This document shows positions 38,723-58,859 of a DNA stretch of 64,000 nt, in pieces. Source of the stretch: Candidatus Roizmanbacteria bacterium CG_4_9_14_0_2_um_filter_38_17. GTDB taxonomy: Bacteria; Patescibacteriota; Microgenomatia; GCA-00278855. The notes under the pieces were generated by a model. That model had not been told where the DNA came from and did not search any database. It saw only the letters and a list, made by a program, of their open reading frames with translations. Position 1 is the stretch's first letter. Every line of letters begins with the position of its first letter. Made by a program: the position numbers and the translations under genes. The stretch is taken from positions 99,292 through 163,291 of the forward strand of contig PFSB01000006.1 of NCBI GenBank assembly GCA_002788855.1. Reading direction: 5' to 3'.

Positions 38723-38747
38723 CTATTAAAAACTGGGTTTTTAATAG
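38723..38747. repeat. REP-B palindrome (CTATTAAAAAC-TGG-GTTTTTAATAG)
   Basis: Perfect 11-bp stem, 3-nt loop. Confidence 0.75.
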
Positions 38748-38771
38748 AATATTTGGTATTCTTGTATTGTT

Positions 38772-39482
38772 ATGAGAAAAGATGCGGTGTTTGTAGTCGG
38801 TGAGTTTTATCATGTATATAATAGAGGAACTCGTAAAAGCGAAATATTTTTGAATGAAAGTGATTATAGACGATGAGATGAGTGTTTGTATTGGAGTAAT
38901 AATTTTGGCTATCCCTATAGTCTTCTAAGACAGCAAATTAATCAGGCGAAAAAGAGTGGTAGAAATATTAAAGAAGTAGTTGAACAAATTGAAATGCAGT
39001 ACCGATTATTTGAGTCTTTGGTTAATGTAATTTCTTACGCACATATGCCAAATCACTTTCACCTAGTCTTGAGGCAAAATGTAGATAATGGAATATCAAA
39101 ATTTATGCATAAAATGTCGGCTTCTTATGCAAAGTACTTTAACAAGAAGTACAATCTAACCGGATCACTGTATGAAGGAAATTTTAGAGCGATTCAGATA
39201 ATATCTGAACCTCAACTATTAGAAGTTAGTAGATATGTTCATATTAATCCAACTGTAGCAGGAATTGTTGATATAAAGGGTTTGCTTACATATCCCTGGA
39301 CATCGTTGCGTTTATATGTAGGAGAAGTGAATAATAAGCTCGTTGATATCAGTTATTTACTCGGCTTAAGTAATAATAACGCAGAAGAGCTGGTAAGGTT
39401 TACTCTTTCCAGGATTAGCGATGATAATGAAGGACTATTGGAAGGGATAATGATTGATGGTAACAAATTAGCCCGTAAATAA
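38772..39482 (+). pseudogene. RAYT copy 2, disrupted by in-frame TGA (TGG to TGA at the Trp position conserved in copy 1)
   Basis: ATG 38772 gives MRKDAVFVVGEFYHVYNRGTRKSEIFLNESDYRR-stop-DECLYW...; downstream part intact with MPNHFHLVL and RYVHINPTVAGIV (Y-x-H-x-N-P) motifs; copy 1 has DSDYVRWENLLSW at the equivalent position. Confidence 0.65.
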
Positions 39483-39485
39483 GCT

Positions 39486-39510
39486 CTATTAAAAACCCAG
39501 TTTTTAATAG
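39486..39510. repeat. REP-B palindrome, inverted orientation (CTATTAAAAAC-CCA-GTTTTTAATAG)
   Basis: Exact reverse complement of copy at 38723. Confidence 0.75.
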
Positions 39511-39642
39511 AATTGCAGTGATTATGAAGAGGGTGTGAAGGATAAATCCGGTGATGTACCAGGAAGAGCTACTAGTACTAGCTCACATATAGGAAACTAG
39601 CAGTTTTTAGGTGGAAGATAAGACTTAAGATATAATACATCC

Positions 39643-40920
39643 ATGGCTTTAGTTACAAAGCTTCGTGGTCTGATTCCAAATAATTTAGTTAATACTTTTT
39701 GGCATTATCCTATTGCTTTGTTTGCGGCTTTGAGATATGGGTTTCCAGCTAAAAAACTTACTTTAATTGGGGTAACAGGTACAGATGGAAAGACTACTAC
39801 AACTTACATTATTAACCATTTGTTAAAAAAAGCTGGATATAAAACAGCTATGATCACGTCTGTATTGGCGGAGATAGCTGGCAAAACTAGTAATACAGGT
39901 TTTCATGTTACCAGTCCCCATCCTTGGCAAGTGCAGAAATATTTAGCTGAAGCAGTTAAATCTGGGGTAACTCATGCGATTCTAGAAGTTACTTCCCACG
40001 CATTGGATCAACACAGATTTGCCGGTTGTAGTTTTAGGTATGGAATTGTAACGAATATTAAACCTGACCACCTGGACTATCATAAAACTTATGATAACTA
40101 CTTTCATTCAAAGTCTAAGCTACTCTTAGGAGCTCAAAAAGCAGTTCTTAACAAAGACGATCAAAGCTTTAACAGGCTAAATACACTCTTAACAGGAAAA
40201 GATATTGTTACGTATAGCATTAAGGAGCAAGCAGACTTTACAGGTAAAAAAATAATACAAACAAGTATACCTGTCACTCTACCAGGAGATTACAATCTAT
40301 CCAATATTCTGGCCGCCACAGCCGTTGTAAATAATATTGGCCTCTCTATTGATGAAGTTAGTAAATATTTACCATCTTTTAAAGCAGTACCAGGCAGATT
40401 TAATGAAGTAGATATTAAAAAAGACTTTCGGGTAGTAATAGATTTTGCCCATACGCCCTATGGTTTACAGGCTTTACTTACTGCGCTGCGGAATCAAACT
40501 CAGGCAAGAATTATAGCTGTATTTGGTTGTGCGGCAGAACGTGGAGCAGATAGGCGAGAGATGGGCAGGGTAGGTGGTAAGTTGGCAGATATAACAATTA
40601 TTACAGCCGAGGATCCTCGTTTTGAAGGCGTGGAAAAGATAAGCGCTGTGATTGCAGGTTGGGCAGATAAAGCTGGAGCAGAAGAATTAAGCAGCAAACA
40701 GTTAGGAGATAGTAGCAAAAAAGATAAGCATGTATATACTAAAATAGCAGATCGGCAAGGGGCAATAAATGCTGCAATAGACATTGCAAAGCCTGGAGAT
40801 ATTATTGTTTTATGTGGAAAAGGACACGAGCAAAGTATGAATTTTAGAGGAGTTGAATATCCTTGGGATGAAAATAAGGCTGTTCAAAAAGCCCTAACTA
40901 AAAGATATGGATCTAAGTAA
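39643..40920 (+). CDS. murE: MurE-like Mur ligase (UDP-MurNAc-L-Ala-D-Glu:diamino acid ligase) lacking canonical N-terminal domain
   Basis: P-loop GVTGTDGKTTTTYII at residue 44, C-terminal AVFGCAAERGADRR...TAEDPRFE resembling MurE FGCGGDRD...DNPRxE region; in-frame stop 6 codons upstream of ATG. Confidence 0.7.
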   Translation: MALVTKLRGLIPNNLVNTFWHYPIALFAALRYGFPAKKLTLIGVTGTDGKTTTTYIINHLLKKAGYKTAMITSVLAEIAGKTSNTGFHVTSPHPWQVQKYLAEAVKSGVTHAILEVTSHALDQHRFAGCSFRYGIVTNIKPDHLDYHKTYDNYFHSKSKLLLGAQKAVLNKDDQSFNRLNTLLTGKDIVTYSIKEQADFTGKKIIQTSIPVTLPGDYNLSNILAATAVVNNIGLSIDEVSKYLPSFKAVPGRFNEVDIKKDFRVVIDFAHTPYGLQALLTALRNQTQARIIAVFGCAAERGADRREMGRVGGKLADITIITAEDPRFEGVEKISAVIAGWADKAGAEELSSKQLGDSSKKDKHVYTKIADRQGAINAAIDIAKPGDIIVLCGKGHEQSMNFRGVEYPWDENKAVQKALTKRYGSK

Positions 40921-42343
40921 AATTAAGCATATACATTTTGTTGGTATAAAAGGTGTAGGGATGACATCTCTAGCTGTATTAGCCCATGAGATGAAAAAAA
41001 AGGTGACTGGTTCTGATGTTTTGGAAGAATTTGTGACAGACAAAGTGCTTAAAGATCTGAAGATTGAAGTATTTGGGGAATTTAATGGAGAGAATTTTAA
41101 GAAGTTACTAACAAGATACAGCCCCCCAGAATTATTAGTAGTTACAACGGGTGCACACCAAGGATTTAATAATCTAGAGGTACAACATGCTAAAGAGCTA
41201 GGCTTTAAAGTAGTCTCCCACGCTCAAGCTTTGGGTATATTATCCATGCATAAGAATGTGATTGCTGTTGCTGGAACGCATGGTAAGTCAACAACAACTG
41301 CAATGATAGCGCATGTTTTAACTGAAGCTGGGACAGATCCATCATACTTAGTGGGAGTTGGAAGCATACCTTCATTACCAAATCCAGGTCATCACGGCAA
41401 GGGTAATTTGTTTGTAGTTGAAGCTGACGAATATGTAACTGATCCTCAAACAGATCCTACCCCACGGTTTCTGTGGCTTAAGCCTAAGATATTAGTAATA
41501 ACATCCGTCGAATATGATCACCCAGATGTTTATTCAGATGTTTACAAACTAGTTCAAGCATTTAGAGAGCTAGCGGAAAAAGTACCCATAGATGGTACCA
41601 TCATTGCCTGTATAGATAACCTAGGTGTGGAGAAAGCTCTAGAGGGCTCTAAGGCTAAGATTATTTGGTATGGATTCTCTCCTCGTGCAGATTATAGAAT
41701 CAAAAGTTATTATCCAACCTTATTATCTGGCGGGCAAGTGGTTTTAGAGTTTTGTGTTGAACACCAAAAACGTGAGTTATTTTGCACACAGCTGGCGGTA
41801 TCTGGTAGACATAATAGCTTAAATGCATTGGCATGCATTATTGCTTGTGTTGAGGTAGGAGTATCGTGGACTAAAGCACCCGAATACCTGAGAAGTTTTA
41901 CGGGTACGGGGCGCAGATTTGAGTTAAAAGGCCAACAAGGAGAGACCGTACTATACGATGATTACGCACATCATCCAACTGAGATTAAGGCTGTGCTGGC
42001 TATGGCTAAGGAGCTCTACGTGGGTTATCATATTATAGCTATATTTCAGCCCCATACATATTCACGCACTAAAGCTCTGTTTAAGGACTTTGCAAAATCT
42101 TTTACAGATGCGAATGAAACTTATTTATTAGATATTTTTTCCTCGGCCCGAGAAAAGAAAGATCCATCTATTTCATCACAAGAATTAGCCAAGGAAGCTA
42201 GTAAGCATGGGGCGCAGGTTAAATATGTACGAAGTGTTCTGGAGATGGTTAACAGGATAAAGTCGAAATTAGGGAGTAAACAGGTTATAATTACGATGGG
42301 AGCTGGAGATGTATACAAGATACACGATAAGCTAAAAGTCTAA
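40907..42343 (+). CDS. murC: UDP-N-acetylmuramate--L-alanine ligase MurC
   Basis: HFVGIKGVGMTSLAVLAHEMKKKVTGSD N-terminal signature, P-loop VAGTHGKSTTTAMI. Confidence 0.85.
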   Translation: MDLSKIKHIHFVGIKGVGMTSLAVLAHEMKKKVTGSDVLEEFVTDKVLKDLKIEVFGEFNGENFKKLLTRYSPPELLVVTTGAHQGFNNLEVQHAKELGFKVVSHAQALGILSMHKNVIAVAGTHGKSTTTAMIAHVLTEAGTDPSYLVGVGSIPSLPNPGHHGKGNLFVVEADEYVTDPQTDPTPRFLWLKPKILVITSVEYDHPDVYSDVYKLVQAFRELAEKVPIDGTIIACIDNLGVEKALEGSKAKIIWYGFSPRADYRIKSYYPTLLSGGQVVLEFCVEHQKRELFCTQLAVSGRHNSLNALACIIACVEVGVSWTKAPEYLRSFTGTGRRFELKGQQGETVLYDDYAHHPTEIKAVLAMAKELYVGYHIIAIFQPHTYSRTKALFKDFAKSFTDANETYLLDIFSSAREKKDPSISSQELAKEASKHGAQVKYVRSVLEMVNRIKSKLGSKQVIITMGAGDVYKIHDKLKV

Positions 42344-42344
42344 T

Positions 42345-43604
42345 ATGGCAAAATTTATAATAAATGGCAGAAATAGACTAGAAGGAAAAATTAAGGTTGC
42401 GGCTAATAAGAATGCGGTTTTGCCAGTAATGGCGGCAACGCTTCTTTGTGAAGGAACAAGCATTATTCATAACGTACCTGAAATAAAAGATGTTGAGGTA
42501 ATGGTGAATATTTTACGCAAGCTGGGAGCAAAAGTAACCTTAAGCGAGAGAACATTAACAGTAGACAGCTCAAATATAACCAATCTAGAAATACCACGTG
42601 ATCTAGCTCAACGCCTGAGAGCATCAGTATTATTGTTGGGACCATTACTTGCAAGAGCTGGAGAAGTTAAGCTTCCTCATCCTGGTGGTGATGTAATAGG
42701 TAGGCGTGGTATTTTCACACATATTTCTGCATTGACGAAGCTAGGGGTTCAAATTACTCAAGATGACCTCATGTACTATGGCAAGGTTATTCAGAAAAAT
42801 GCAGTGAAAGTATTTTTAGATGAACCCTCAGTGACAGGCACAGAAAATGTCATGATGTACGCGGCTTTAACAGATGGTGAAACAGTGATAGAGAATGCTG
42901 CAGCTGAACCTCATATTGTTGATCTATCTAGATTTTTAGCATCAGCTGGTGTAACTATCGAGGGAGCAGGAACTAGTAGAATTAGAATAATAGGAAAAAA
43001 GAGCTTAAAGGGCGGAGAGTATACAATTTCTCCTGACCCGATTGAAGCGGGCACATTTGCAATTGCTTCTGCAGTAACCAAAGGAGACCTGGAGATTGGA
43101 CCAATTGTACAAGATGACATGCAGATGATAAAGATAGTGCTGGAGAGATTTGGCGTTAATCTAAAGTTTGATAAAGATAAACTTCGTGTAAATTCCAAAG
43201 AAATAACAGCACCTCTTAGACCTGTGCAAGCAATGGTTTGGCCTGGCTTTCCAACTGACCTTATGAGTCCTTTAATCGTGCTTGCCACACAGGCAGAAAG
43301 GCAGACCCTGTGTCATGATCCTCTTTATGAGTCACGCATGTTCTTTGTTGATAAGCTAATTAGAATGGGGGCTCACATTACAATCTGTGATCCGCATCGT
43401 GTCATTGTGTATGGCAAGTCAAACTTGTATGGAAGAGAGCTGGCAAGTCCAGATATACGAGCAGGAATGGCCTTAGTTTTGGCGGCTTTAATAGCGGAGG
43501 GTAAGAGTGTTATTGATCAAGCAGAGATTGTTGAAAGGGGATACGAGAATATTGACAAAAGATTGCGTATAATAGGAGCAGATATTAAAAGATCTAATGA
43601 TTAA
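42345..43604 (+). CDS. murA: UDP-N-acetylglucosamine 1-carboxyvinyltransferase MurA
   Basis: FIINGRNRLEGKIKVAANKNAVLPVMAATLL, 419 aa EPSP-synthase fold. Confidence 0.9.
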   Translation: MAKFIINGRNRLEGKIKVAANKNAVLPVMAATLLCEGTSIIHNVPEIKDVEVMVNILRKLGAKVTLSERTLTVDSSNITNLEIPRDLAQRLRASVLLLGPLLARAGEVKLPHPGGDVIGRRGIFTHISALTKLGVQITQDDLMYYGKVIQKNAVKVFLDEPSVTGTENVMMYAALTDGETVIENAAAEPHIVDLSRFLASAGVTIEGAGTSRIRIIGKKSLKGGEYTISPDPIEAGTFAIASAVTKGDLEIGPIVQDDMQMIKIVLERFGVNLKFDKDKLRVNSKEITAPLRPVQAMVWPGFPTDLMSPLIVLATQAERQTLCHDPLYESRMFFVDKLIRMGAHITICDPHRVIVYGKSNLYGRELASPDIRAGMALVLAALIAEGKSVIDQAEIVERGYENIDKRLRIIGADIKRSND

Positions 43605-44841
43605 ACAAGCAGTTATATTGGCAGCAGGCGAGTCATCAAGGTTTCAGCCGTTGTCTGCATATAGGCATAAAGCAGAAATCCCATTGCTTGGTAAAAGTTT
43701 GCTCCAGCGCACGGTAGATAACTTACAGAGCATTGGTGTAGAAGAGGTTATTATAGTTCATTCGCCAGATCGAAGACCTCAGTTATTTGCTCATGAGTGT
43801 GAACTAAGATTTGTAGTTCTAGATAAACCTACAGGAATGGGAGATGCCCTGCTGGCAGCTTTAGATTTTTTGGATGATAAATATTTTGTGCTTCATCCCT
43901 ACCACTTTGCGGGAGTTAATTACATGAAAAAGATGGTTAAGGTTACAGCTGAAAATAATGGCTGTTTATTAGTAACTGATCCCGTAATAGGAAAAAGCGG
44001 TGGACTTGCCACGGTTGAAAAGGATGACATTGTCCAGGTTGAGGAGATGGAGTATAAGGGGGGAGATAATAAGAAATATGTTCTTGGAATATATTTACTA
44101 ACCAAAACATACACAGATATTTTGCAACAGACTAAAAAAGATCACTATAGTTTTGAACTTGCCCTTGATCAATATGCAAGAGCTAACAAATTATCCTGGT
44201 TTCAGGTTAGAGACTACTCAGTATCGCTAAAATACCCCTGGGACTTATTCAAGATCAAGGATACGCTTCTTCGCTCTAGTAAAGCAAGTATAGCGAAAAC
44301 AGCGAAAATTGACCCAACAGCCGTGATAGATGGGGTAGTTATTATCGATGAAAATGCGAAAATAGGAGCATATGCCGTTATTAGAGGTCCCGCATATATT
44401 GGTAGAAATGTACGAGTAGGAGATCATGCTTTGGTTCGTGATTTGACTACATTGGAAGAGGGCTCGATGGTGGGTGGTTCAGCAGAAGTAAAAAATAGTA
44501 TTGTTTTGGAAGAGTCTCATGTGCAGGGATATCTTGCAGACTCTATAGTGGGGCAAGAGGTGAGAATAGCTCATGGATTTGTTTCAGCTAATCGCCGCAT
44601 TGATAGGGAAACCATCTCTGTAGAGGTTAAAGGTAAAAAAATAGATACAAGGTTTTTTGCCCTGGGTTGTATAGTAGGTGATAATGTTTATACGGGTATA
44701 AATGTGGCAACTATGCCAGGGGTTAAAGTTGGTGAGAATTCAATAGTTGGCCCTCGTACCACTGTGTTTGCGAATGTCCCTCCAAATGTTCGGTATTATC
44801 AAAAAGCCGAATCCCACACAGAAAAGATTATAAAGAAGTAA
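43597..44841 (+). CDS. Bifunctional sugar-1-phosphate nucleotidyltransferase / hexapeptide acetyltransferase (GlmU-like)
   Basis: N-terminal AVILAAGESSRFQPL NTP-transferase motif and C-terminal LbH repeats; follows murA. Confidence 0.5.
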   Translation: MIKQAVILAAGESSRFQPLSAYRHKAEIPLLGKSLLQRTVDNLQSIGVEEVIIVHSPDRRPQLFAHECELRFVVLDKPTGMGDALLAALDFLDDKYFVLHPYHFAGVNYMKKMVKVTAENNGCLLVTDPVIGKSGGLATVEKDDIVQVEEMEYKGGDNKKYVLGIYLLTKTYTDILQQTKKDHYSFELALDQYARANKLSWFQVRDYSVSLKYPWDLFKIKDTLLRSSKASIAKTAKIDPTAVIDGVVIIDENAKIGAYAVIRGPAYIGRNVRVGDHALVRDLTTLEEGSMVGGSAEVKNSIVLEESHVQGYLADSIVGQEVRIAHGFVSANRRIDRETISVEVKGKKIDTRFFALGCIVGDNVYTGINVATMPGVKVGENSIVGPRTTVFANVPPNVRYYQKAESHTEKIIKK

Positions 44842-44847
44842 TCTGCT

Positions 44848-45555
44848 ATGAATAGTTATCATAGGCAACTATTGGTTAATATCCAGAAGAATTCAAGAAG
44901 AGAAGATTTGTCATTACACAATAGCCAGAAGTACTGTGGGACAAGTGACAAATTCTACAATCTTAAAACAGAAATCAAGCGTCAGGCTGCAAAAGAATTT
45001 TTTAGAAAGTATCTTGATTTATCTTTCGATGAGTATATTGAGCTTTTGGATTCTTTGAACACTGGAAAATCCTATGAAGAAAAAACTATTGCCTCAATGA
45101 TTTTATGTTTGTATAAAAACAACAAAGAACACATAGGTCCAGAACATTTAGATAAGTGGCTTGAAAATCTTGAAGGTTGGGCAGAAATTGATTCATTATG
45201 CCAGTCTTCTTTTGGTGCTGATGAAATATTACTAAAATGGAACAGTTGGGAAAAAGCCTTAATTACTTTCTCCAGATCAGATTTTATTAGCAAAAGAAGA
45301 GCGAGTCTTGTTTTGCTTGTAAAACCTGTAAGAGACGCTAAGAATGATAAGTTGTTTAGTCTTGCGCTGGAAAATATAGATAAATTAAAGAAAGAGAAAG
45401 ATATATTAATTACAAAAGCAATTTCGTGGTTGTTACGGGATATGATAAAAAACTATAGAAATGAAGTAAGGCATTACTTGAAGGAAAATAGAGAAACTCT
45501 CCCAAAAATTGCTATAAGGGAAGTAACAAGGAAACTAGAAACAGGAAAGAAGTAA
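44848..45555 (+). CDS. DNA alkylation repair protein (AlkC/AlkD-like HEAT-repeat glycosylase family)
   Basis: W/D-rich helical repeats (WLENLEGWAEIDSLC, KAISWLLRDM) typical of DNA_alkylation family. Confidence 0.55.
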   Translation: MNSYHRQLLVNIQKNSRREDLSLHNSQKYCGTSDKFYNLKTEIKRQAAKEFFRKYLDLSFDEYIELLDSLNTGKSYEEKTIASMILCLYKNNKEHIGPEHLDKWLENLEGWAEIDSLCQSSFGADEILLKWNSWEKALITFSRSDFISKRRASLVLLVKPVRDAKNDKLFSLALENIDKLKKEKDILITKAISWLLRDMIKNYRNEVRHYLKENRETLPKIAIREVTRKLETGKK

Positions 45556-45572
45556 GCAGTTAGATTATAAAT

Positions 45573-45797
45573 ATGGAAGCTAGAGAAGCAAGTATTATAA
45601 CAGGTGTAATTGCAGAGAAATATGGTCTGGATAACATAGAAGTGAGTGGTTGGCTACATAATGCATTAGATCCTGGACTAGGTCCAGAAAGCAATCAAAA
45701 AGCGAGAGGATCGCTAAATCATGCTCTTGACGAATCGGATGTAACCTATTTACTTGGTATTTGGGCTGATTGTATAGCCGACTCCAACTCTGCTTAA
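45573..45797 (+). CDS. Hypothetical small protein
   Basis: 74-aa ORF, no recognisable motif. Confidence 0.3.
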   Translation: MEAREASIITGVIAEKYGLDNIEVSGWLHNALDPGLGPESNQKARGSLNHALDESDVTYLLGIWADCIADSNSA

Positions 45798-45824
45798 ATA
45801 TCTGGATTGGATCTAGTTCTGGCT

Positions 45825-45890
45825 CTATTAAAAACTGGGTTTTTAATAGGTTGTTAAATCAAGCTATTAAGGGGGTCAACTATTTAAATT
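45825..45890. repeat. REP-B palindrome plus about 40-bp extension; left copy of direct repeat bounding 1.5-kb cassette
   Basis: CTATTAAAAACTGGGTTTTTAATAG then TTGTTAAATCAAGCTATTAAGGGGGTC...TTTAAATT; matches 47377..47443. Confidence 0.7.
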
Positions 45891-46013
45891 ACAGGAAGTG
45901 ATTTCCATTATTGGGACACAGAGCTCGTAATACTTTTTAAACTTCAAAAAAAGTTCCAAAATTTTTGTCATTCAAAAGTTAACCTCATTTTAAGTTCGAA
46001 TCCCACTCGGCCG

Positions 46014-46022
46014 TGGTATAAT
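46014..46022 (+). promoter_or_regulatory. Extended -10 (TGGTATAAT) for cassette operon
   Basis: 6 nt upstream of ATG 46029, leaderless configuration. Confidence 0.4.
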
Positions 46023-46028
46023 AATTGT

Positions 46029-46469
46029 ATGGAAACCTTTCTTAATTTTCTAACAGTATTCGGGCTTGGAAGCGTTATAACTGTATTTATCACACACAAA
46101 CTAAAACAATCCTCAGAATCAAAAATAAAAATGAGAGAATTAAAAGAAAATCAATATAAAAGTCTTCTTAATAATTTAATGGGTTTTTTTGAGGGATGGG
46201 AAGACTATGCAGTTGCAGATAAAAAAGCTCGCAAGAAACAATTCTTGTGGGAAGTTTATACAAGCGTTCCTGTATATGCATCAGATGTGGTTATAAGGCT
46301 TTGCTATGAGTTTATAGAAAGCCATAACAAAGAAGGGAAATTGAAAGGAGAGAGCAATAAAATTTATTCAAAAATCGTAATTGCTATGAGAATGGAATTA
46401 AATAAAATTTATGGTCAGCCAGATACTACACTTTCAGAGAAAGACATTAAAGTTCTTAAAGTTGATTAA
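46029..46469 (+). CDS. Hypothetical membrane-anchored protein (1 TM plus 120-aa soluble domain)
   Basis: N-terminal FLNFLTVFGLGSVITVFITH helix; no known motif. Confidence 0.45.
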   Translation: METFLNFLTVFGLGSVITVFITHKLKQSSESKIKMRELKENQYKSLLNNLMGFFEGWEDYAVADKKARKKQFLWEVYTSVPVYASDVVIRLCYEFIESHNKEGKLKGESNKIYSKIVIAMRMELNKIYGQPDTTLSEKDIKVLKVD

Positions 46470-46508
46470 TGATTCAAAGCAGAGCAGACAAAATTACAAA
46501 AACTGACA

Positions 46509-47330
46509 ATGAATATTTTTCAGAGTAAGTACTTCAACGTTGTTCTTCCAGTTTTATTTGTTTTGTTTCTTTTGCTGCTACTTGTCTATGGTTGTTTAAT
46601 TGGCATATATGATGTTATAACTTTAGCTGTAAATGCCGTCCTTATGCTCCTTGCTACGCTAATTGCAATTTCACTACCTTTGTATGCAAGCGCGAAAAAT
46701 GAACAAAAACGCAGGGATAAGGAACATGAAATGATTTATGTATCTGTATCCCGATACGTTGGCGGTGAAATCTTGGATAATGTTATAGAGATTCAAGATA
46801 TTCTAAAAAATAATGAAAAATCTCTAGGCCAACTGGATAAACAAAATCTTTCTATGTCAGAAAGAGATAAAAAAATAGTTACCGCTTCTATATGGAAAAC
46901 GGCTTCAGAAATCCTTGTTGGTTCGCTTCAGGATAAACATCACAACAATATGGTTATGTCTGGTTTAGTAGCCAAAATTCCCGATGACGCTGTTGGCAAC
47001 GGAATTCGTGATACTTATCAAAAAATGGATAATCTAAAAAAGCGACTCAAAAGCATAACGATGTTTTTTGGAATGCTTATATCTCCCCAAGTTGGGGTTT
47101 CTAAAACATTCTTGGATTATCAGTTTAATACGAAACTGCAAGAAGGTATTACTGCTGTTGAATTGGATATAAAGATATTTAGCGATTCTGCAGAAAAAAC
47201 TAGAAAAGACATTAACAAGCTACTGAAACAATATGGGAAAGAGATTAAAATTATAGCTTATGAAAAAGTACATAACTCTGAAAAAGGATCTAGAAAAACT
47301 GAAAAATCTTCCATTTCTTCAAAAAAATGA
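46509..47330 (+). CDS. Hypothetical membrane protein (2 N-terminal TM plus helical soluble domain, Lys/Ser-rich tail)
   Basis: VLPVLFVLFLLLLLVYGCLIGIYDVITLAVNAVLMLLATLIAISLPLY; no known motif. Confidence 0.45.
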   Translation: MNIFQSKYFNVVLPVLFVLFLLLLLVYGCLIGIYDVITLAVNAVLMLLATLIAISLPLYASAKNEQKRRDKEHEMIYVSVSRYVGGEILDNVIEIQDILKNNEKSLGQLDKQNLSMSERDKKIVTASIWKTASEILVGSLQDKHHNNMVMSGLVAKIPDDAVGNGIRDTYQKMDNLKKRLKSITMFFGMLISPQVGVSKTFLDYQFNTKLQEGITAVELDIKIFSDSAEKTRKDINKLLKQYGKEIKIIAYEKVHNSEKGSRKTEKSSISSKK

Positions 47331-47376
47331 GCAAGAGATTGTTGATAAATAGCTATAGCTATGGTTGAAAGATGTT

Positions 47377-47443
47377 TCTATTAAAAACTGGGTTTTAAAT
47401 AGATTGTTAAATCAAGCTTTTAAGGAGGTCTACCCTTTAAATT
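47377..47443. repeat. REP-B variant plus extension; right copy of direct repeat bounding cassette
   Basis: CTATTAAAAACTGGGTTTTAAATAG then ATTGTTAAATCAAGCTTTTAAGGAGGTC...TTTAAATT. Confidence 0.7.
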
Positions 47444-47579
47444 TCAGACCCTTTAAATCCAGATAATGGGGTCAGCCACCTATTTAGAAAAAATACAAGG
47501 ACAAATCTTGTAGAAAATATATATGCAAATTTTCTACTCAATTGGGAAACGGCACCTTTTTTCATTTAACGCTCAACTT

Positions 47580-47616
47580 AAGGCAAGGTCTTCCATTTCA
47601 TGTAAGGCCTTGCCTT
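47580..47616. terminator. Hairpin AAGGCAAGG-N19-CCTTGCCTT, possible bidirectional terminator
   Basis: 9-bp perfect stem immediately 3' of minus-strand TrmB stop (47625). Confidence 0.3.
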
Positions 47617-47624: not shown

Positions 47625-48383
47625 TTAGGGGAGGAGGGACCAGAGGGATTGGAAGATTATTTTCTGGGTTTGGACTAGTCCGGGTTCTTCAATGATAACT
47701 GCATATGGTAGTTCATCTTCGGTGATAGAGATGATGGCATATTTATCTGTATAGATGATGATATAGCTTGAGGAGTTGGAGCTGGAGTTTTGTATCCATT
47801 TTCGCTGTGCTAACTGCACTTCTTCTCCACCTTTTCCTAAGGCAATTACATTTACCTGGATACCTTTGGTAATTCTTTGTTTAGTAAAATTAGGAAATTG
47901 TTGATAGAGGTATTTTCTGATTGGCAAAGCTGAGTAAGCATAATATGTTTTATCTTTAGTATTCTCAACAGAGTGGAGAATATCTAGGAGTACTTTTTCG
48001 ATACCTTCTTCTCCCTCATAATATTTAACCGTGGGACTTGATCCAGTAATTTTAGATGCCTCAAGTTCTGGTATGACTTTTGTACTAAGGGATGAAATTA
48101 GCTGTTTAATCCTGGTTTCTTTTTCTTTAGCAAGATTTGTTAGTTTTTTAGGAGATTCAGCTAGATAACGTTTTCGCTGTCCACTCATCTGAAAGCATAC
48201 GAGGCCTTTTTTTACGAGTTCTCTTAGTATTTCGTGAGTAGTTCCCCTATTGATTTTAGTATCTGCAGCTAGCTCCCGGATGGAGACAGGGCCAAGCTTT
48301 AGGAGTGATTTGTAAACAATATATTCCTTACTAGATATACCCAGCAGACTAAATTGTGAATCCATTGGGTAATTATATAACAC
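47625..48383 (-). CDS. TrmB-family (sugar-responsive) transcriptional regulator
   Basis: N-terminal winged HTH ...YKSLLKLGPVSIRELAADTKINRGTTHEILRELVKKGLV..., 252 aa with C-terminal sensor-like domain. Confidence 0.65.
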   Translation of the reverse strand: MLYNYPMDSQFSLLGISSKEYIVYKSLLKLGPVSIRELAADTKINRGTTHEILRELVKKGLVCFQMSGQRKRYLAESPKKLTNLAKEKETRIKQLISSLSTKVIPELEASKITGSSPTVKYYEGEEGIEKVLLDILHSVENTKDKTYYAYSALPIRKYLYQQFPNFTKQRITKGIQVNVIALGKGGEEVQLAQRKWIQNSSSNSSSYIIIYTDKYAIISITEDELPYAVIIEEPGLVQTQKIIFQSLWSLLP

Positions 48384-50250: not shown

Positions 50251-50269
50251 TAAGGTATACTTAAATATT

Positions 50270-51244: not shown

Positions 51245-51292
51245 TTAATGCTTAAATATAGCCATTTCTTGTTATAATCAGGCTATAAGATT

Positions 51293-52009: not shown

Positions 52010-53616
52010 TGATAAATATATTGTCATATATTGTTCTAGCAGCATTTGTAATTCGTACTATACGAAATACTCTTTACCACATATTTTTGTGGCAAAACAA
52101 TGAATATCGTCTAGACATGCTTAAGGTTTATCTAAAGACGAGTGTTGGCAAAAGAATTGTTTTTGGTCCCATGGCAAAGATTAAATTTGTTTTATTAGCT
52201 CTATTTATCTTTGCTTTAATAGGGGAGTTTAATATTATAGCTAGCTTGGCTATCTGGAGTTTTGGGGTTTTATTTATTGTGGAAGCATGGCGAAATCTAG
52301 GCGAGTTTATGTCAGGTTCTTTGCCTCTTCCTAAGTTTACAGTCAAAGTTGTGCTGATCATATTAATAACATTACTTTTTCAGTTTATTCTGATATTGTC
52401 CTCATCTCCACGTTTTGCTTTAGATCTTATGCCATTTATGGATAAGCTGCTTGCTGTATCCGTTGCTGCGCAGATTGGGTTACTAAGCATCCCAACTCGA
52501 ATTAGGGATGCATTGTTGGAGTATTTTGCCATGGAGAAAATGGTTAGATTTAAAAGAATTCGCGTAGTGGGAATTACCGGAAGTTATGGAAAATCTACAA
52601 CTAAGGAGTTTTTGTACCAGTTGGTTAAAGATGAGTTCAATGTAGTTAAAACTTCTAAGAATATAAACAAGCCAGTGGGTATTGCAAAGCTTATTTTGCA
52701 AGAAGTCAGTGACAAAACTGAGCTACTTATAGTTGAAGCAGCGGCTGACAAACACCATGGTCGGAACCAGGTGGTGCGTATTACAAATATGTTAGCAGAT
52801 AAGCTGAGTGTGGCTGTGATAACAGGAGTAAATCAGCAACATCTAGCGCTGTTTAAATCTAGACAGGAAATAATTCAAACAAAATATAGTTTGGTGACAG
52901 GTCTTAATGATGAGGGCGTTGCGGTTCTTAAGGTAGATAGTCGTTCTATGCGGAGGCTTGCAAAAAAAGCCAAAAAAGACAGTTTAAAAACGGTGTTATG
53001 CGGAACGGATAAACGCCTCTATGCCTATGGGGACAAAATTGTGCTATCTAGTTCTGGGTCTAAATTTGAATTAGTTATCGGAAAGAATAGAGCTAAATTA
53101 AATACAGATCTTCTAGGGTTAGCAAACGTGGAAGGCATTGTTGTAGCGGCAACAGTGGCTATGCAGCTAGGTGTTTCGTGGAATAGGATAAAGACTAAGA
53201 TAAAAAAACTTACTCCGCCACTTAATTCTCTTAATGTAGTTAAAAAACGTGGCTTAGTATTGATTGACGATACCTACAGCGCAAATCCTGATGGTGTAAT
53301 TGCAGCTTTAGACTTTTTATCACTCTATTCTGATACCAAAATATTAGTGCTTAATCCATTAGCTGAACTTGGAGAGGATTCCGTTTTAGTACATAAGAAC
53401 ATAGTCAAGTATGCGGCAAAAATTTGTGATGCCATCATCTTAACAAATGGTAATAACTACGAAGCTGTTATGAAAGCTGTAAAAGAAGATGTTGTTGTAG
53501 TGGTAAAGAATAAGAATCAAGTGAAAGATTACATAAAGAACAACTTTAAAGGTAAAAAGGTTATATTATTTGAAGGAAGGGAGACCGCGGGTGCTTTGAG
53601 CACTTACAAAAGTTAA
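52009..53616 (+). CDS. murF: MurF-like UDP-MurNAc-tripeptide--D-Ala-D-Ala ligase with polytopic N-terminal membrane domain replacing canonical domain 1
   Basis: About 5 TM helices in first 170 aa, then VVGITGSYGKSTTKEF P-loop, NINKPVGIAKLIL and VNQQHLALFKSRQEIIQTKYSL matching MurF central-domain motifs. Confidence 0.65.
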   Translation: MINILSYIVLAAFVIRTIRNTLYHIFLWQNNEYRLDMLKVYLKTSVGKRIVFGPMAKIKFVLLALFIFALIGEFNIIASLAIWSFGVLFIVEAWRNLGEFMSGSLPLPKFTVKVVLIILITLLFQFILILSSSPRFALDLMPFMDKLLAVSVAAQIGLLSIPTRIRDALLEYFAMEKMVRFKRIRVVGITGSYGKSTTKEFLYQLVKDEFNVVKTSKNINKPVGIAKLILQEVSDKTELLIVEAAADKHHGRNQVVRITNMLADKLSVAVITGVNQQHLALFKSRQEIIQTKYSLVTGLNDEGVAVLKVDSRSMRRLAKKAKKDSLKTVLCGTDKRLYAYGDKIVLSSSGSKFELVIGKNRAKLNTDLLGLANVEGIVVAATVAMQLGVSWNRIKTKIKKLTPPLNSLNVVKKRGLVLIDDTYSANPDGVIAALDFLSLYSDTKILVLNPLAELGEDSVLVHKNIVKYAAKICDAIILTNGNNYEAVMKAVKEDVVVVVKNKNQVKDYIKNNFKGKKVILFEGRETAGALSTYKS

Positions 53617-53618
53617 GT

Positions 53619-54815
53619 ATGTTAAAAGTAATATCTTCAGGACTTTCTCCAAATACGAAAGCGACAGATGTCATAATTGCTCTGGAGGCATTAATATTAA
53701 AACGGCACTGGAAAGATCCTTTGCAGTTGCATATTCTAAAAAAATGGTTTGCAAGTCGGTATAACTCTGATCAAGTCTATTTATTTAATTCTGGGCGGTC
53801 TGCGTTGTATTTTCTGCTTAAAGCGGCGGGTGTAACAAAACAAGACGAGGTTATAGTGCAGGCTTTTACATGTATTGGAGCTATTAACCCAATTATCTGG
53901 ATTGGAGCAAAACCTGTTTATATAGATATAGATCCACAAACATATAATCTTGACCCTGACTTACTGGAGTCATCAATTACTTCTAAAACTAAAGTTGTAA
54001 TTGTTCAACATACCTTTGGAATACCTGCTGCTATTTCTAAAATTAAGAAAATATGTCAAGAGCATAAAATTATTCTAATTGAAGACTGTGCGGTAAGTAT
54101 TGGCGCATTTGTGGGTAAAAAAGAAGTAGGTACATATGGTGATGCGGCTTTTTTTAGTTTTGGAAGAGATAAGATAGTTTCTAGTGTTAGTGGTGGTGCC
54201 GCAATAATTAATAATCTTAAACATTTTGCCAATCTAGATGAGTTATATAGAGAGATACTAGAGCCTTCCTCTAACTGGGTATATCAGCAGTTATTGCACC
54301 CTGTTGCTATGGCTGTAATTCTTCCTCTGTATTTGATTCAAGTAGGAAAGATATTATTAGTTTTATTGCAGAAAATTAAACTTATTTCTAAACCATATGA
54401 AGAATTGGAATATTCTGGAGGTAAACCAGAAAGTTATCCTCGAAGGTATTCTCCAGCTTTAGTTCCGCTAATTATGCATCAGCTTAGACAGCTAGATGCG
54501 ATGGATGCAAGACGGGTCTTTAATGCCAGTTACTATGGAGAAAATTTAATAAAAGGAGCTGTATATTTGCGCTATCCAGTATTGGTAAAAAATAGAGAAC
54601 AGATATTAAATAAAGCTCAAAGGGCAGGAATTTATCTTGGTACATGGTATGATAGTGTGATTAATCCAGCTGGTGTAACTTTGAGTAATTTTAAATACAA
54701 AAAAGGTAGTTGCCCAGTGGCAGAAGATATTGCAGGACGAATACTAAATTTACCAACATACGCGCGTTTGACTGTTAGGGAAATAAAGAAAGTTAGAGAT
54801 ATTGTGAATGACTAA
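53619..54815 (+). CDS. DegT/DnrJ/EryC1/StrS-family PLP-dependent sugar aminotransferase
   Basis: EDCAVSIGAFVGKKEVGTYGDAAFFSFGRDKIVS (D-x-A-x-A-x-G ... SF-x-x-x-K Lys motif). Confidence 0.65.
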   Translation: MLKVISSGLSPNTKATDVIIALEALILKRHWKDPLQLHILKKWFASRYNSDQVYLFNSGRSALYFLLKAAGVTKQDEVIVQAFTCIGAINPIIWIGAKPVYIDIDPQTYNLDPDLLESSITSKTKVVIVQHTFGIPAAISKIKKICQEHKIILIEDCAVSIGAFVGKKEVGTYGDAAFFSFGRDKIVSSVSGGAAIINNLKHFANLDELYREILEPSSNWVYQQLLHPVAMAVILPLYLIQVGKILLVLLQKIKLISKPYEELEYSGGKPESYPRRYSPALVPLIMHQLRQLDAMDARRVFNASYYGENLIKGAVYLRYPVLVKNREQILNKAQRAGIYLGTWYDSVINPAGVTLSNFKYKKGSCPVAEDIAGRILNLPTYARLTVREIKKVRDIVND

Positions 54816-55881
54816 TCTCCACATAAAACCAGTTACTAGTAACAAAACCTGGAACAACTTCATAAGCTCAGTTGCTGCTCGCTCTTTTTTTCAGTCCTGG
54901 GAGTGGGGAGAAGTGAGTAAGCTCAATGGTCAGACAATAGATAGACTCGGCATCTATGAAAAAGACAGGTTGGTTGGTGTTTTTCAGATAACACTTGTTC
55001 AAGCTAAGCGTGGTAACTATATTATGTTAAGACATGGTCCAGTGCTTAGTAGTTGGAACAGTAGATATCTAGTAGTATTGATAGATTTTTTAAAAAAAAT
55101 CTACAAAGATAATTATTCTTTTATAAGAATAAGTCCATTAATAGACCGTGTATATAGTACTTTGTTGAAGAAAGTTGGATTCAGACTAGCGCCTGTGCAC
55201 GACAATATTGATGCGCAGATATGCTACGAGGTGAATCTCAAACCTGAGCTGGAAGTAATCTTGGCGGGCATGCGCAAAAATACTAGAGGATCGATTAAAA
55301 AAACAGCTTCAAACGAAAACCTTACGATAGGGTATGAAATTTCAGCTAAATCTATTAAGGAATTTAGTCAACTATACCGTCAAACGGCTCGTAAAAAAGG
55401 TTTTGTGGAATGGAGTGGGATAAAAACAGAAGTTAGTGAGTTTGATAAGAACAAAGCTGTGGATCTTATCATTGTCTACTTGAATAAAGAGCCGGTTGCG
55501 GGAGCAGTGATTAATTACTGGGGTAATCAGGGTATTTATCATTATGCTGCTGCAAATTATGATGGCTTAAAAACTCAAGCGCAATATTTAGTGATTTACG
55601 AGGCAATAAAACGTTGCAAAATGCGTGGGTTGGAATATTTTAATTTCTGGGGTGGAATTGAAGACATCAGTGATGTTGGGCACCCATGGTTTGGGTTAAC
55701 AGTTTTTAAACGTGGATTCGGGTCAAAGCAGAAAGTTTATCTACAGACATATGATTATATGCTTTCTCATGGGTACTGGAAAACATATCTATATGAGCAA
55801 GTTGTTGAGCATTTACGAGGATACAAAACAATTGGTACTTGGCGTAGTCCAACTTTCTTACGACGACTATTTGGTGTATGA
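54808..55881 (+). CDS. FemAB-family peptidyltransferase (peptidoglycan branch/interpeptide formation)
   Basis: FFQSWEWGEVSKLNGQ N-terminal FemAB signature, 357 aa, two GNAT-like halves. Confidence 0.55.
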   Translation: MTNLHIKPVTSNKTWNNFISSVAARSFFQSWEWGEVSKLNGQTIDRLGIYEKDRLVGVFQITLVQAKRGNYIMLRHGPVLSSWNSRYLVVLIDFLKKIYKDNYSFIRISPLIDRVYSTLLKKVGFRLAPVHDNIDAQICYEVNLKPELEVILAGMRKNTRGSIKKTASNENLTIGYEISAKSIKEFSQLYRQTARKKGFVEWSGIKTEVSEFDKNKAVDLIIVYLNKEPVAGAVINYWGNQGIYHYAAANYDGLKTQAQYLVIYEAIKRCKMRGLEYFNFWGGIEDISDVGHPWFGLTVFKRGFGSKQKVYLQTYDYMLSHGYWKTYLYEQVVEHLRGYKTIGTWRSPTFLRRLFGV

Positions 55882-55894
55882 TGAAATTATAGAG

Positions 55895-56239
55895 ATGAAA
55901 TTTGTAAAATCAGTAACCCATGCAATTGAAGGCTTAGGGTACGTGCTTAGAGAGCATGCAAACTTTCGTATTCATATAGCATTAGCTTTTGTCGCGATAG
56001 TTTTAGGAATAAGCTTAAAATTGTCTAATCTCGAACTGTCCATACTTGTAATAACTATTACGCTAGTATTAATGGCAGAGATTCTGAATACTGCGGTTGA
56101 AGAGCTGTCGGACTTAATTACCCTGCGCTGGAGTAAACATGCTAAAGTTGCAAAGGATGTCTCTGCTGGCATGGTATTTTTAACTTCAATTTGCGCGGCA
56201 ATTGTGGGGTGGTTGCTTTTTATTCCTAAACTTAATTAA
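55895..56239 (+). CDS. dgkA: Diacylglycerol/undecaprenol kinase DgkA family
   Basis: MKFVKSVTHAIEGLGYVLREHANFRIHIA...EILNTAVEELSD (E-x-x-N-T-A-V/I-E motif), 3 TM; track ORF 55712 is an upstream over-extension overlapping femAB gene. Confidence 0.7.
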   Translation: MKFVKSVTHAIEGLGYVLREHANFRIHIALAFVAIVLGISLKLSNLELSILVITITLVLMAEILNTAVEELSDLITLRWSKHAKVAKDVSAGMVFLTSICAAIVGWLLFIPKLN

Positions 56240-56242
56240 TAT

Positions 56243-57277
56243 ATGGCATTATTCTTAGGTATATTTCTAGTTTCTTTTTGCATTAATGCATTATTGTTTG
56301 TCCCATTCATTAATCTTCTATATAAAATTCAGATGCAGCGGCAAAAACAAGATACGCTGGATACTTTTGGTAAATTAACGCCAATATTTAATCGTTTACA
56401 CAAAATGAAAGTGGGTACTCCAGTTGGCGGTGGGCTTTTACTCATAATAACAACCTGCATTTTAACTCTGGTGATTTTGTCTAGCTTGAAACTATTCTGG
56501 GTACCTATAGTTTCTGACTATCCACTCATATCTGAGCTTAAAGTAATTTTTTTTACATTTGTCATGTTTGGGCTCTTAGGTCTTTATGATGACATAAAAA
56601 AGATGTTTAAGTTCTTAGCGGATACTTTTTTTGGTCTTAGGTTTAGGCACAAGATTCTATTGCAAATTATTCTTGCTGCAATTATTTCATATTGGCTTTA
56701 CCAGAATCTTTCAATATCTATTATTAATATTCCCTTAATTGGGGTAATAGACCTAGGCTGGATATATATTCCGTTTGCAACACTAGTTATTGTGGCTTTC
56801 ACCAATGCATATAATATTACCGATGGTCTAGACGGGCTTGCAGGAGGGCTGTTATTTATTGCACTTATTATTTTCTGGGTTATATCTGCTTCAGTTTTAG
56901 ATACTCCTTTGGAAATTTTTATTGCCGTCTGGGTAGGGGGATTGGTAGCTTTCTTGTATTTTAATGTATTTCCAGCTAGGATCTGGATGGGTGATGTGGG
57001 TTCAATGGCTTTTGGAGCAACATTAGCTGTAATTGGCTTATTATTAGGTAAGTTAGTAGCCCTGGTAATAATTGGTTTAATATTTGTTCTAGAAGTAAGC
57101 TCCAGCTTAGCTCAGATGTTATCTAAATATTTTCGTGGAAAGAAATTATTCGAAGTAGCTCCATTTCATTTATTGCTTCAAAATAAAGGATGGGCAGAGC
57201 CTAAAATTGTTATGCGTGCTTGGTTGGTCCAAATTATGCTGGGAGTGTTCGGCCTCTGGCTCTCCTTCTTTACTTAA
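56243..57277 (+). CDS. mraY: Phospho-N-acetylmuramoyl-pentapeptide transferase MraY
   Basis: NAYNITDGLDGLAGG motif, polytopic 344 aa. Confidence 0.9.
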   Translation: MALFLGIFLVSFCINALLFVPFINLLYKIQMQRQKQDTLDTFGKLTPIFNRLHKMKVGTPVGGGLLLIITTCILTLVILSSLKLFWVPIVSDYPLISELKVIFFTFVMFGLLGLYDDIKKMFKFLADTFFGLRFRHKILLQIILAAIISYWLYQNLSISIINIPLIGVIDLGWIYIPFATLVIVAFTNAYNITDGLDGLAGGLLFIALIIFWVISASVLDTPLEIFIAVWVGGLVAFLYFNVFPARIWMGDVGSMAFGATLAVIGLLLGKLVALVIIGLIFVLEVSSSLAQMLSKYFRGKKLFEVAPFHLLLQNKGWAEPKIVMRAWLVQIMLGVFGLWLSFFT

Positions 57278-57326
57278 GTTTTAATATTTTATTGATTCAC
57301 CCTATTTTGATATATACTCTAAGCTC

Positions 57327-58793
57327 ATGATTCGCGCAAAGGATATAACATTTTCGTATGGTAGTGAGCTCGTTTTTGATAAAACTAGTTTTATCATTAC
57401 TGAAGGTCAAAAAGTTGGCATGGTTGGTCCAAATGGGGCTGGTAAATCAACATTATTTTCCATTATTACAAATAAACTAGAGCTGGATGCTGGAAGTATC
57501 GAGACGACTGGAACTGTCGGATATGTTCCACAGGAAGTTAAGCAAGATCCTAGTTTAGAAGAGTCTTTATCAGTAAGAGACTATATTGATCCAGAAAAGC
57601 AGAAGAGCGATTTCGAGCTAAAAAAACTATTAGCAGGACTAGAATTAGATCATGTAGCGCTACTATCAAAGCCCAAGATCTTGAGTGGAGGCCAAAAAAC
57701 AAAACTAGCTCTTGCACGAGCTTTAATTCAAGAGCCTGACCTACTGCTGTTGGATGAACCTGTTAATTTTATGGATTCTGCTGGTAAGAGATTCGTGATG
57801 AACTTCTTGAGTCAATATCCTAAATCTCTGATGATCGTGTCCCATGACCTTGATTTACTGGACGAGCACATTGATAAGGTCTTGATATTAAATATACAAA
57901 GCAAAAAAATAGAGACGTATGCTGGAACATATAAAAAAGCAATGAAACTCAAAGAAGAACAGGAAGAGCATTTTAAAAGACAGGTTAGAGTAAAGGAGAA
58001 GCATATAGAACAAATGGAAAAATCATTGCTTAAGCTCTACAGGAACAAGTCAAAAAAAGGGGTACGTGCTCGCATGCAACACATAAAACGTATTGGGCAA
58101 GAAAAATCTGCGCTTCCTGCAATGCCAACTGCGATTAAAAAATTTAAGCTAGATTTACCTGAACCTAGTAGAATTGCTGAGTTACCAATAATGGTTAAGG
58201 GTATCAATAAATCATATGGTGATAATAAGGTTCTTAAAGACCTATCTTTTTATGTAAATAGAGGAGAGAAAATATTAATAACTGGAGACAACGGGGCAGG
58301 TAAGTCGACACTTATTAAAATTATTATGAATAAAATTAAAGCAGATACAGGTACAGTTTTGATCAAGGAAAACGTGCAAATTGGCTACTATTCTCAAGAG
58401 TTTGAAACTTTTGATTTTAGCAAAAGAGTGTTGGATACGGTAATGGAGGAGTGTGGTATCTATGAGCAGAAAGCTCGGAGTTTTTTGGGGAGGTTTATGT
58501 TTGATGCAGATAATGTAAAACAGCGCGTCGGGACGCTCTCAGGAGGTGAAAAAACTAGATTGTCTGTGGCTATGATAATGCTGAATAATAATAATCTCTT
58601 AGTTCTTGATGAACCTACTACCTATCTTGATCCTCTGAGCCAAAGAATCGTTCTCGAAGCTCTCAAGGAATATAAAGGAACTCTTGTATTAGTTAGCCAT
58701 GTGGATGAATTTGTAAAAGAATTAAAACCAGATAGAGCATTCCTCATGCCAGAAGGTGAACTAATCACCTGGTTCTCCACCCAGGATTATTAG
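57327..58793 (+). CDS. ABC-F family ATPase (two ABC domains, basic inter-domain linker; no TM domain)
   Basis: Two Walker A (GMVGPNGAGKST, ITGDNGAGKST), two LSGG signature motifs, K/R-rich linker. Confidence 0.8.
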   Translation: MIRAKDITFSYGSELVFDKTSFIITEGQKVGMVGPNGAGKSTLFSIITNKLELDAGSIETTGTVGYVPQEVKQDPSLEESLSVRDYIDPEKQKSDFELKKLLAGLELDHVALLSKPKILSGGQKTKLALARALIQEPDLLLLDEPVNFMDSAGKRFVMNFLSQYPKSLMIVSHDLDLLDEHIDKVLILNIQSKKIETYAGTYKKAMKLKEEQEEHFKRQVRVKEKHIEQMEKSLLKLYRNKSKKGVRARMQHIKRIGQEKSALPAMPTAIKKFKLDLPEPSRIAELPIMVKGINKSYGDNKVLKDLSFYVNRGEKILITGDNGAGKSTLIKIIMNKIKADTGTVLIKENVQIGYYSQEFETFDFSKRVLDTVMEECGIYEQKARSFLGRFMFDADNVKQRVGTLSGGEKTRLSVAMIMLNNNNLLVLDEPTTYLDPLSQRIVLEALKEYKGTLVLVSHVDEFVKELKPDRAFLMPEGELITWFSTQDY

Positions 58794-58834
58794 AATTATA
58801 TAGAGCGTCGCTCTATTAAGGCCTTGTTTACAAC

Positions 58835-58859
58835 CTATTAAAAACTGGGTTTTTAATAG
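58835..58859. repeat. REP-B palindrome (fifth copy)
   Basis: CTATTAAAAACTGGGTTTTTAATAG. Confidence 0.75.

Follow-up and report, generated by a model that had tools for sequence, protein, structure and literature searches.

Repetitive extragenic palindromes (REPs) of a family termed REP-B are dispersed through a 64,000-nucleotide stretch of DNA, here called the window, from the groundwater bacterium Candidatus Roizmanbacteria bacterium CG_4_9_14_0_2_um_filter_38_17 (contig PFSB01000006.1, positions 99,292 to 163,291 of the forward strand; assembly GCA_002788855.1). We regard REP-B, with a probability of roughly 0.8, as the cognate DNA hairpin of RAYT-B, a Y1 HUH tyrosine transposase that resembles the REP-associated tyrosine transposases (RAYTs). 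Together, the repeat and the enzyme would constitute a system of the REPtron or TIRtron type in a bacterium of the Candidate Phyla Radiation (CPR)/Patescibacteria type. The gene content of the window, with DUF4012 and a compact division and cell-wall (dcw) cluster, and the lineages of the transposase homologues both indicate a host of this type. The same sequence is part of a 110.9-kb contig from groundwater metagenomes and is found in contigs of two metagenome-assembled genomes (GCA_002786635.1 and GCA_009992065.1).

A mismatch-tolerant search of the window defines REP-B as a perfect 25-base hairpin, CTATTAAAAAC-NNN-GTTTTTAATAG, with an 11-base-pair (bp) stem and a 3-nucleotide (nt) loop. Five copies are present, four of them exact and one with a single mismatch, which confirms the count and stem length given in a first-pass annotation of this DNA. 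The number expected by chance is zero, as no match was found in 100 dinucleotide-preserving shuffles, and a search of the window that tolerated three to four mismatches revealed no additional degenerate copies. The five copies, and the gene that the first two enclose, are as follows.

38723-38747, no strand assigned: REP-B copy 1, loop TGG, between the ftsI stop (30 nt away) and the RAYT-B ATG (24 nt away)
38772-39482, plus strand: RAYT-B, Y1 HUH transposase gene, 236 codons from the ATG at 38772, bracketed by REP-B copies 1 and 2
39486-39510, no strand assigned: REP-B copy 2, loop CCA (TGG in relatives L009 and L010), 4 nt past the RAYT-B stop
45825-45849, no strand assigned: REP-B copy 3, loop TGG, 27 nt past a 74-amino-acid (aa) open reading frame (ORF), at the left edge of a 1.5-kb cassette
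47378-47402, no strand assigned: REP-B copy 4, loop TGG, 48 nt past the second ORF of the cassette, in a convergent spacer with a TrmB-like gene
58835-58859, no strand assigned: REP-B copy 5, loop TGG, 42 nt past the ABC-F stop

All five copies are intergenic, as had been stated before, and coding sequence takes up about 91% of the window. A check against gene ends, which the first-pass annotation had proposed, places every start 4-48 nt past a stop codon, and non-coding DNA within 60 nt downstream of stops makes up only 1.6% of the window. The genes named earlier as lying directly upstream were correct for ftsI, RAYT-B, the cassette and ABC-F but not for the alkD-like gene, which ends 270 nt before copy 3; the 74-aa ORF (45573-45797) is the one that this copy follows. 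The mismatched copy is likewise real, but position 47377, formerly given as its start, is the T of an extended 12-bp stem, and the core begins one position later. Its mismatch is a T-to-A change at position 20, by which stem pair 6/20 is lost.

The contig was additionally walked for 10 kb off each end of the window, so that 84 kb was read in all. A sixth REP-B, also exact, lies after ftsZ at the equivalent of window position 65978, 2 kb beyond the window end, and neither REP-B nor a second palindrome family described below (REP-A) occurs in the 10 kb upstream. Flank alignment reveals a common core of about 25-27 nt, and many copies carry short asymmetric flanks, (G/A)GCT at one end of the hairpin and (G/A)TTG(TTAAAT) at the other. 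Relatives for comparison were metagenome contigs that contain the exact REP-B pattern, and these are 75-92% identical to the window; the scan that retrieved them returned none of the contigs of the window itself. Exact copies occur at at least nine distinct sites in these related genomes, at least five of which are sites beyond those of the window copies, and the hairpin is kept at 25 of 25 positions across genomes that are only 75% identical. Copy 1 is unchanged in L009 and L010. A scan of the GTDB representative genomes for the exact REP-B pattern gave no matches, and an Rfam scan at gathering thresholds and a tRNA scan of the window returned nothing.

Orthologous copies can differ in the direction of the loop. 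The loop of copy 2 (39497-39499) reads CCA in the window and TGG in L009 and L010, with the same stems and flanks, and loops are also flipped relative to their flanks at 58835 when compared with L008, and in L002. These flips suggest inversion through recombination within the palindrome or through template switching. Because loops flip in this manner, the term 'inverted', which had been applied to copy 2, describes its 3-nt loop and does not define the orientation of the element.

RAYT-B is flanked on both sides by REP-B, and the same arrangement is found in L009 and L010. Its product belongs to the Y1 transposases. The Pfam model Y1_Tnp (PF01797) matches RAYT-B at 34.9 bits and its paralogue in the window, RAYT-A, at 25.1 bits, both above the cut-off, and the sole NCBIfam match of the pair is REP_Tyr_transpos (NF047646), the model for REP-associated tyrosine transposases, at 31.6 and 29.5 bits. 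An alignment with 12 database relatives reveals invariant YHxxNRG, PNHFH (the HUH motif) and Y155xxxN159(P) motifs, the last in the variants YVHINP, YVHTNP and YIHLNP. These conform to Y---NP rather than to the Y---Q of IS200 enzymes, and Y...NP is the signature of class 2 (TnpA-REP) within the TnpA-Y1 family (Quentin 2018, PMC6006769). Resemblance in motifs (NHFH, FQ and Y[VI]H[IL]NP) and in length (about 235 aa) would place both RAYT-A and RAYT-B in subclass 2.1. Furthermore, an AlphaFold2 model of the intact RAYT-B allele (pLDDT, the predicted local distance difference test score, 88.8) finds as its best solved-structure match 4ER8, the E. coli RAYT with its REP hairpin (E = 2e-6), followed in the same fold search by the TnpA structures of ISDra2 and IS608, members of IS200/IS605, at about 3e-4.

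In the window, RAYT-B carries an in-frame TGA at codon 35 (38874-38876), at the position of a conserved tryptophan that is encoded by TGG in the L009 and L010 orthologues and is also present in RAYT-A. The TGA is found in four independent assemblies. Gene callers report only a 198-aa remnant (38886-39482), which lacks the invariant N-terminal YHxxNRG motif. We rejected a reassignment of TGA (genetic code 4 or 25), since table 11 leaves every other long ORF intact. The ratio of non-synonymous to synonymous substitution rates (dN/dS) against L009 is 0.105, and the inactivation is therefore probably recent. With RAYT-B interrupted in this way, the REP-B copies, five to six in number, are probably relics that are now immobile or dependent on read-through of the gene. 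The neighbouring RAYT-A/REP-A pair is intact.

That pair bears out the earlier proposal of two palindrome families, each with its own transposase: REP-B brackets RAYT-B and REP-A brackets RAYT-A, and both enzymes belong to Y1_Tnp and possess the HUH motif and the tyrosine. REP-A has the form ATATAAAGATC-N-GATCTTTATAT and occurs in the window at 18342, 34620 and 35346, with a fourth copy on the same contig at about 68105, before ileS.

34620-34642, no strand assigned: REP-A copy immediately upstream of RAYT-A
34643-35344, plus strand: RAYT-A, paralogue of RAYT-B (40% identity), an intact Y1 HUH transposase of 233 aa
35346-35368, no strand assigned: REP-A copy immediately downstream of RAYT-A
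18342-18364, no strand assigned: solo REP-A with two mismatches, between two co-directional genes

The solo copy constitutes the entire intergenic spacer at its position within a glycosyltransferase operon. It contains the TAA stop (18345-18347) of the gene at 17241-18347, and the next gene has an in-frame ATG 6 nt beyond the hairpin.

Comparison with more distant relatives reveals that hairpin and transposase co-evolve. The RAYT of relative L113, which is 52% identical to RAYT-B, is bracketed by two copies on each side of CTGTGAAACAC-CGG-GTGTTTCACAG. This hairpin has the same 11-3-11 geometry, the same terminal bases and the same AAGCT left flank as REP-B, and its stem differs from that of REP-B by three compensatory pair changes, with 98.7% of cells paired. 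A third transposase, of the RAYT-A-like kind, lies between atpC and carA in relative L115 (7961-8672) and is bracketed by yet another hairpin, REP-C (TATAGAGT-TGG-ACTCTATA). REP-A goes with the RAYT-A type and REP-C with the P0006 type, each hairpin having its own type of enzyme, and the loops of the REP-B, L113 and L115 hairpins are all YGG. At least 574 relatives of the transposase are present in GTDB representative genomes, mostly in CPR lineages. Among the 76 homologue loci with enough flanking sequence to test, at least 43 have a private hairpin common to both flanks of the gene.

Two further observations concern hairpins of this style. REP-C family sites are found in L115 (7961-8672), in L003 (323-341) and, in degenerate form, in the window:

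58799-58817, no strand assigned: TATAGAGCGTCGCTCTATT, a degenerate REP-C-like palindrome that precedes REP-B copy 5 by 17 nt

The gene at 12119-13447, on the minus strand, has its 3' end present twice, as a 108-nt direct repeat (11220-11327 and 12137-12244, 88% identical). The insert of about 800 nt between the repeats contains what appears, from reading of the sequence, to be a small antitoxin/toxin-like gene pair, and at the inner edge of the repeat (11328-11356) stands a perfect hairpin, TTTGTTTTAAAAC-CGG-GTTTTAAAACAAA, styled like REP-A, REP-B and REP-C.

The transposase units behave as discrete modules with limits at, or close to, their own hairpins. RAYT-B lies between ftsI and murE in all of the related contigs compared, and every contig that carries the intact RAYT-B allele P0001 has the order ftsI-RAYT-murE, a fixed locus that would be RAYT-like and not IS-like (IS, insertion sequence). 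When L009 and L010 are compared, the REP-RAYT-B-REP unit is 95-99% identical and the flanking genes are 65-80% identical; the synonymous divergence (dS) of RAYT-B is 0.049, whereas that of ftsI is saturated. This tract of identity over diverged flanks argues that the RAYT-B unit was exchanged laterally. Its right edge lies 7 nt past the 3' REP; on the left it begins within the final part of ftsI, some 55 nt upstream of the 5' REP. L010 has no RAYT-A, and homology to the window restarts there 0-2 nt from the outer edges of both REP-A hairpins. Relatives also diverge abruptly after the 3' REP of RAYT-B, and many contigs stop there.

Contigs L119-L124, which carry P0001, come from several independent assemblies and break 30-150 nt after RAYT-B, at or just past the 3' REP; such breaks fit a repeat or a strain-variable junction. 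Elsewhere in L009, the glycyl-tRNA synthetase gene (9034-10049, 426 aa) gives no nucleotide alignment to the glyS of the window (32780-33892, 459 aa), while both of its flanks are about 90% identical to the window, and it may represent an allele replacement.

Module behaviour of this kind could also be expected of minimal IS200-like insertion sequences, in which case each REP-RAYT-REP unit would be a selfish element and not a domesticated one, and solo REP-B copies would be orphan ends or derivatives akin to miniature inverted-repeat or palindrome-associated transposable elements (MITEs and PATEs). In its favour, genomes either have or lack RAYT-A as one discrete block with the hairpins as its limits, the RAYT-B unit has passed between lineages in one piece, the hairpin is confined to the two gene ends in most relatives, and the flank motifs suggest that both bracketing hairpins have the same orientation, as do the left and right ends of IS200/IS605 elements. 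We nevertheless consider this account unlikely. The enzyme has the class-2 Y...NP motif instead of the IS200 Y...Q, is about 235 aa (233-236) in length and not about 150, and has a fold nearer to 4ER8 than to the transposases of IS608 and ISDra2. In addition, the unit occupies one fixed locus in every contig with the allele, its two ends are identical perfect hairpins and not distinct left and right ends, and it has no tnpB.

The proximity of the repeats to stop codons raises the alternative that they are primarily transcription terminators, or hairpins that stabilize 3' untranslated regions, selected at gene ends with only a secondary link to the transposase. The first-pass annotation had suggested such roles. 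All six copies of the window and contig lie within 50 nt of a stop codon, in the sparse territory noted above. However, other features of the sequences do not support a terminator or mRNA-stability role, and we judge it highly improbable. The RNA hairpin would be rich in A and U, with two G-C pairs among 11, a predicted stability of -7.1 kcal/mol and no U-tract, and the hairpins are not flagged by a terminator scan that itself shows no terminator enrichment at all. Placement is also awkward for a terminator: a copy in L005 sits between the divergently transcribed uvrB and uvrA, one REP-B lies upstream of RAYT-B, and the REP-A at 18342 is wedged between tightly packed co-directional genes. Moreover, identity at 25 of 25 positions in genomes that are 75% identical fits a repeat recognized by a protein, not convergent terminators.

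The perfect, strictly conserved 11-3-11 dyad, one copy of which lies 222 nt from the TrmB-like regulator gene at 47625-48383, could in principle be the operator of a dimeric transcription factor such as that regulator, but this is barely credible, as most copies are downstream of genes and not in promoters, promoter elements are absent at the sites, the compensatory stem changes track the RAYT relative, and dozens of genomes have the same arrangement, with unrelated hairpins, at their homologous transposase genes.

Several observations weigh against REP-B being the cognate hairpin of a RAYT-like enzyme. The enzyme gene is broken in this genome, the two NCBIfam scores do not reach the RAYT equivalog cut-off of 80, and a phmmer search of RAYT-B against PDB sequences found no relative. 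The foot of the hairpin bears no GT[AG]G or CGTC tag, its flanks being (G/A)GCT-CTATT...AATAG-(G/A)TTG, and the REP-B copies include no inverted doublets of the REPIN type. Copy number appears low, at six in 84 kb, and additional hairpin copies were found within 6 kb on either side in just 3 of the 43 related loci, a span that is short for judging dispersal. Finally, movement of REP-B and RAYT-B is read from sequence comparison, and the left edge of the L009/L010 tract falls outside the 5' REP, such that the exchange may reflect homologous recombination rather than transposition.

If REP-B is the substrate of RAYT-B, its likely fate in the cell can be sketched from better-known enzymes. E. coli TnpA-REP and other enzymes are known to recognize hairpins in single-stranded DNA and to cleave and rejoin at the foot (PMC3479197, PMC8266576). 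By analogy with E. coli TnpA(REP) and the TnpA of IS200/IS605, the intact enzyme would bind the hairpin with the 11-bp stem and YGG loop in single-stranded DNA, cut at the hairpin foot via a 5'-phosphotyrosine intermediate and then rejoin the strands. Cutting and rejoining of this sort would seed solo hairpins into other intergenic spacers, and hairpin feet would thereby become favoured breakpoints for insertion or deletion of adjoining DNA. From the same analogy we infer catalysis on the REP-B and REP-A hairpins, the mode of spread and any function for the host.

REP sites are the place of three independent accessory-gene differences between relatives, two of the three flush against the hairpin. 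The first involves a cassette in the window and a direct repeat, D3, that is formed by REP-B copies 3 and 4 with their flanks, which have 71 nt in common at 89% identity.

46029-47330, plus strand: two ORFs (146 aa and 273 aa) that form a cassette flanked by REP-B copies 3 and 4
45850-45894, plus strand: D3 flank, 45 nt, repeated after copy 4 at 47403-47447; REP plus flank make up D3

In L003, which is 84% identical, the order is alkD, a single REP-B and the trmB-like gene, without the 74-aa ORF, the 1.5-kb cassette or the second REP. Neither cassette ORF has a Pfam or NCBIfam match, and exact-protein look-ups of the second cassette ORF and of the TrmB-like gene returned only the present arrangement, with no other context and no empty site. 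The second difference is an extra 612 nt in L009 (6947-7581; 90% identical), flush at REP-A between RAYT-A and mraZ, which consists of exactly one 25-nt REP-A plus a 184-aa alpha/beta-hydrolase-like ORF and is absent from the window. The third is in L008 (2837-3530; 87-92% identical), where an ANT(2'')-like nucleotidyltransferase ORF (PF10706) lies on the opposite strand, flush against the counterpart of REP-B copy 5 and with its TAA stop inside the hairpin, and where a deletion has left only a remnant of the ABC-F gene (window 57359-58675).

These patterns, together with the abrupt divergence of relatives after the 3' REP of RAYT-B, fit either integration at hairpins or deletion through REP-REP recombination. 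A bolder reading, which we hold to be rather unlikely, is that the hairpins serve as docking or breakage sites for the capture and loss of small accessory-gene cassettes in streamlined CPR genomes, by way of the HUH enzyme or of recombination at single-stranded hairpins. Were it true, such exchange would be a REP-based functional analogue of cassette exchange mediated by attC sites. We also considered an actual integron cassette with attC sites and rejected it: the repeats are perfect 25-nt hairpins, the same as those that flank the HUH transposase, whereas attC sites are imperfect and have extrahelical bases. No integrase is found among the annotated neighbours.

REP/RAYT systems have, to our knowledge, been characterized almost entirely in Proteobacteria and Cyanobacteria, and a literature search found no description of them in CPR/Patescibacteria. 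In the present case, at least two REP/RAYT pairs are retained inside the essential division and cell-wall cluster of a genome that is small and densely coded, and CPR lineages hold hundreds of homologous transposases with private hairpins. The hairpin breakpoints hint at a way in which genomes that have few other mobile elements could gain and lose genes. If the subclass 2.1 assignment is true, the rule of a hairpin partner would extend to a subclass reported to be without REPs, and the simple perfect stems would offer substrates for the study of DNA recognition by the enzyme. In itself, REP-B/RAYT-B is an ordinary kind of bacterial repeat in an unusual host, a sound annotation rather than a surprise.

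The arrangement is the one by which a REPtron is architecturally defined: a bracketed gene, extra hairpin copies, several pairs and co-evolution. As in the REPtrons of E. coli and Pseudomonas (Nunvar 2010, PMC2817692; Messing 2012, PMC3479197; Corneloup 2021, PMC8266576), a cognate extragenic hairpin stands on both sides of a Y1 HUH gene and recurs at other, dispersed intergenic sites, a genome has more than one RAYT/REP pair, each with its own hairpin that co-varies with the enzyme, and the nearest solved fold is 4ER8. In contrast to those systems, REP-B lacks the GT[AG]G foot, and its perfect 11-bp stem is A/T-rich and closed by a YGG triloop; it occurs only as singlets, without arrays of REPINs or of bacterial interspersed mosaic elements (BIMEs), and apparently in few copies, where REPtron palindromes number tens to hundreds per genome. 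RAYT-B itself, at about 235 aa, has a C-terminal extension, is 13% identical to 4ER8 and falls under the NCBIfam RAYT cut-off, and the host is a CPR bacterium.

Inheritance provides a further comparison. RAYTs are said, in work by Bertels in 2017, to occur in single copy at a conserved locus and to be inherited much as housekeeping genes are. The order ftsI-RAYT-murE is kept throughout, yet L009 and L010 share an allele and RAYT-A is absent from L010. IS200/IS605 elements and their PATE/MITE derivatives have in common with REP-B/RAYT-B the single-strand hairpin ends, the Y1 HUH enzyme and the hairpin-bounded presence or absence of the unit, and differ in the tyrosine motif (Y...Q against Y...NP), in their shorter protein, in having end hairpins that are not identical, in the lack of a single fixed locus and in tnpB.

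A match in motifs and length is the TIRtron/TIRYT group (Di Nocera 2013, PMC3733652), which corresponds to TnpA-Y1 subclass 2.1 (Quentin 2018, PMC6006769). Its proteins carry NH[YF]H, FQ and Y[IV]HLNP as motifs, with 238 aa as the median length. TIRtron genes have inverted-repeat flanks, some of them self-complementary and some forming moderately abundant families, in species without GTAG REPs (PMC3733652). No REP-like hairpins were reported near subclass 2.1 genes (PMC6006769), whereas the gene here, like that of at least 43 related loci, has clear stem-loops on both sides, with the subclass assigned by motif resemblance only. The published GGGGWSAS motif of the TIRtron terminal inverted repeats (TIRs) is also absent from REP-B. 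Among the known systems, the REP-B/RAYT-B system nonetheless most resembles the TIRtron/TIRYT group.

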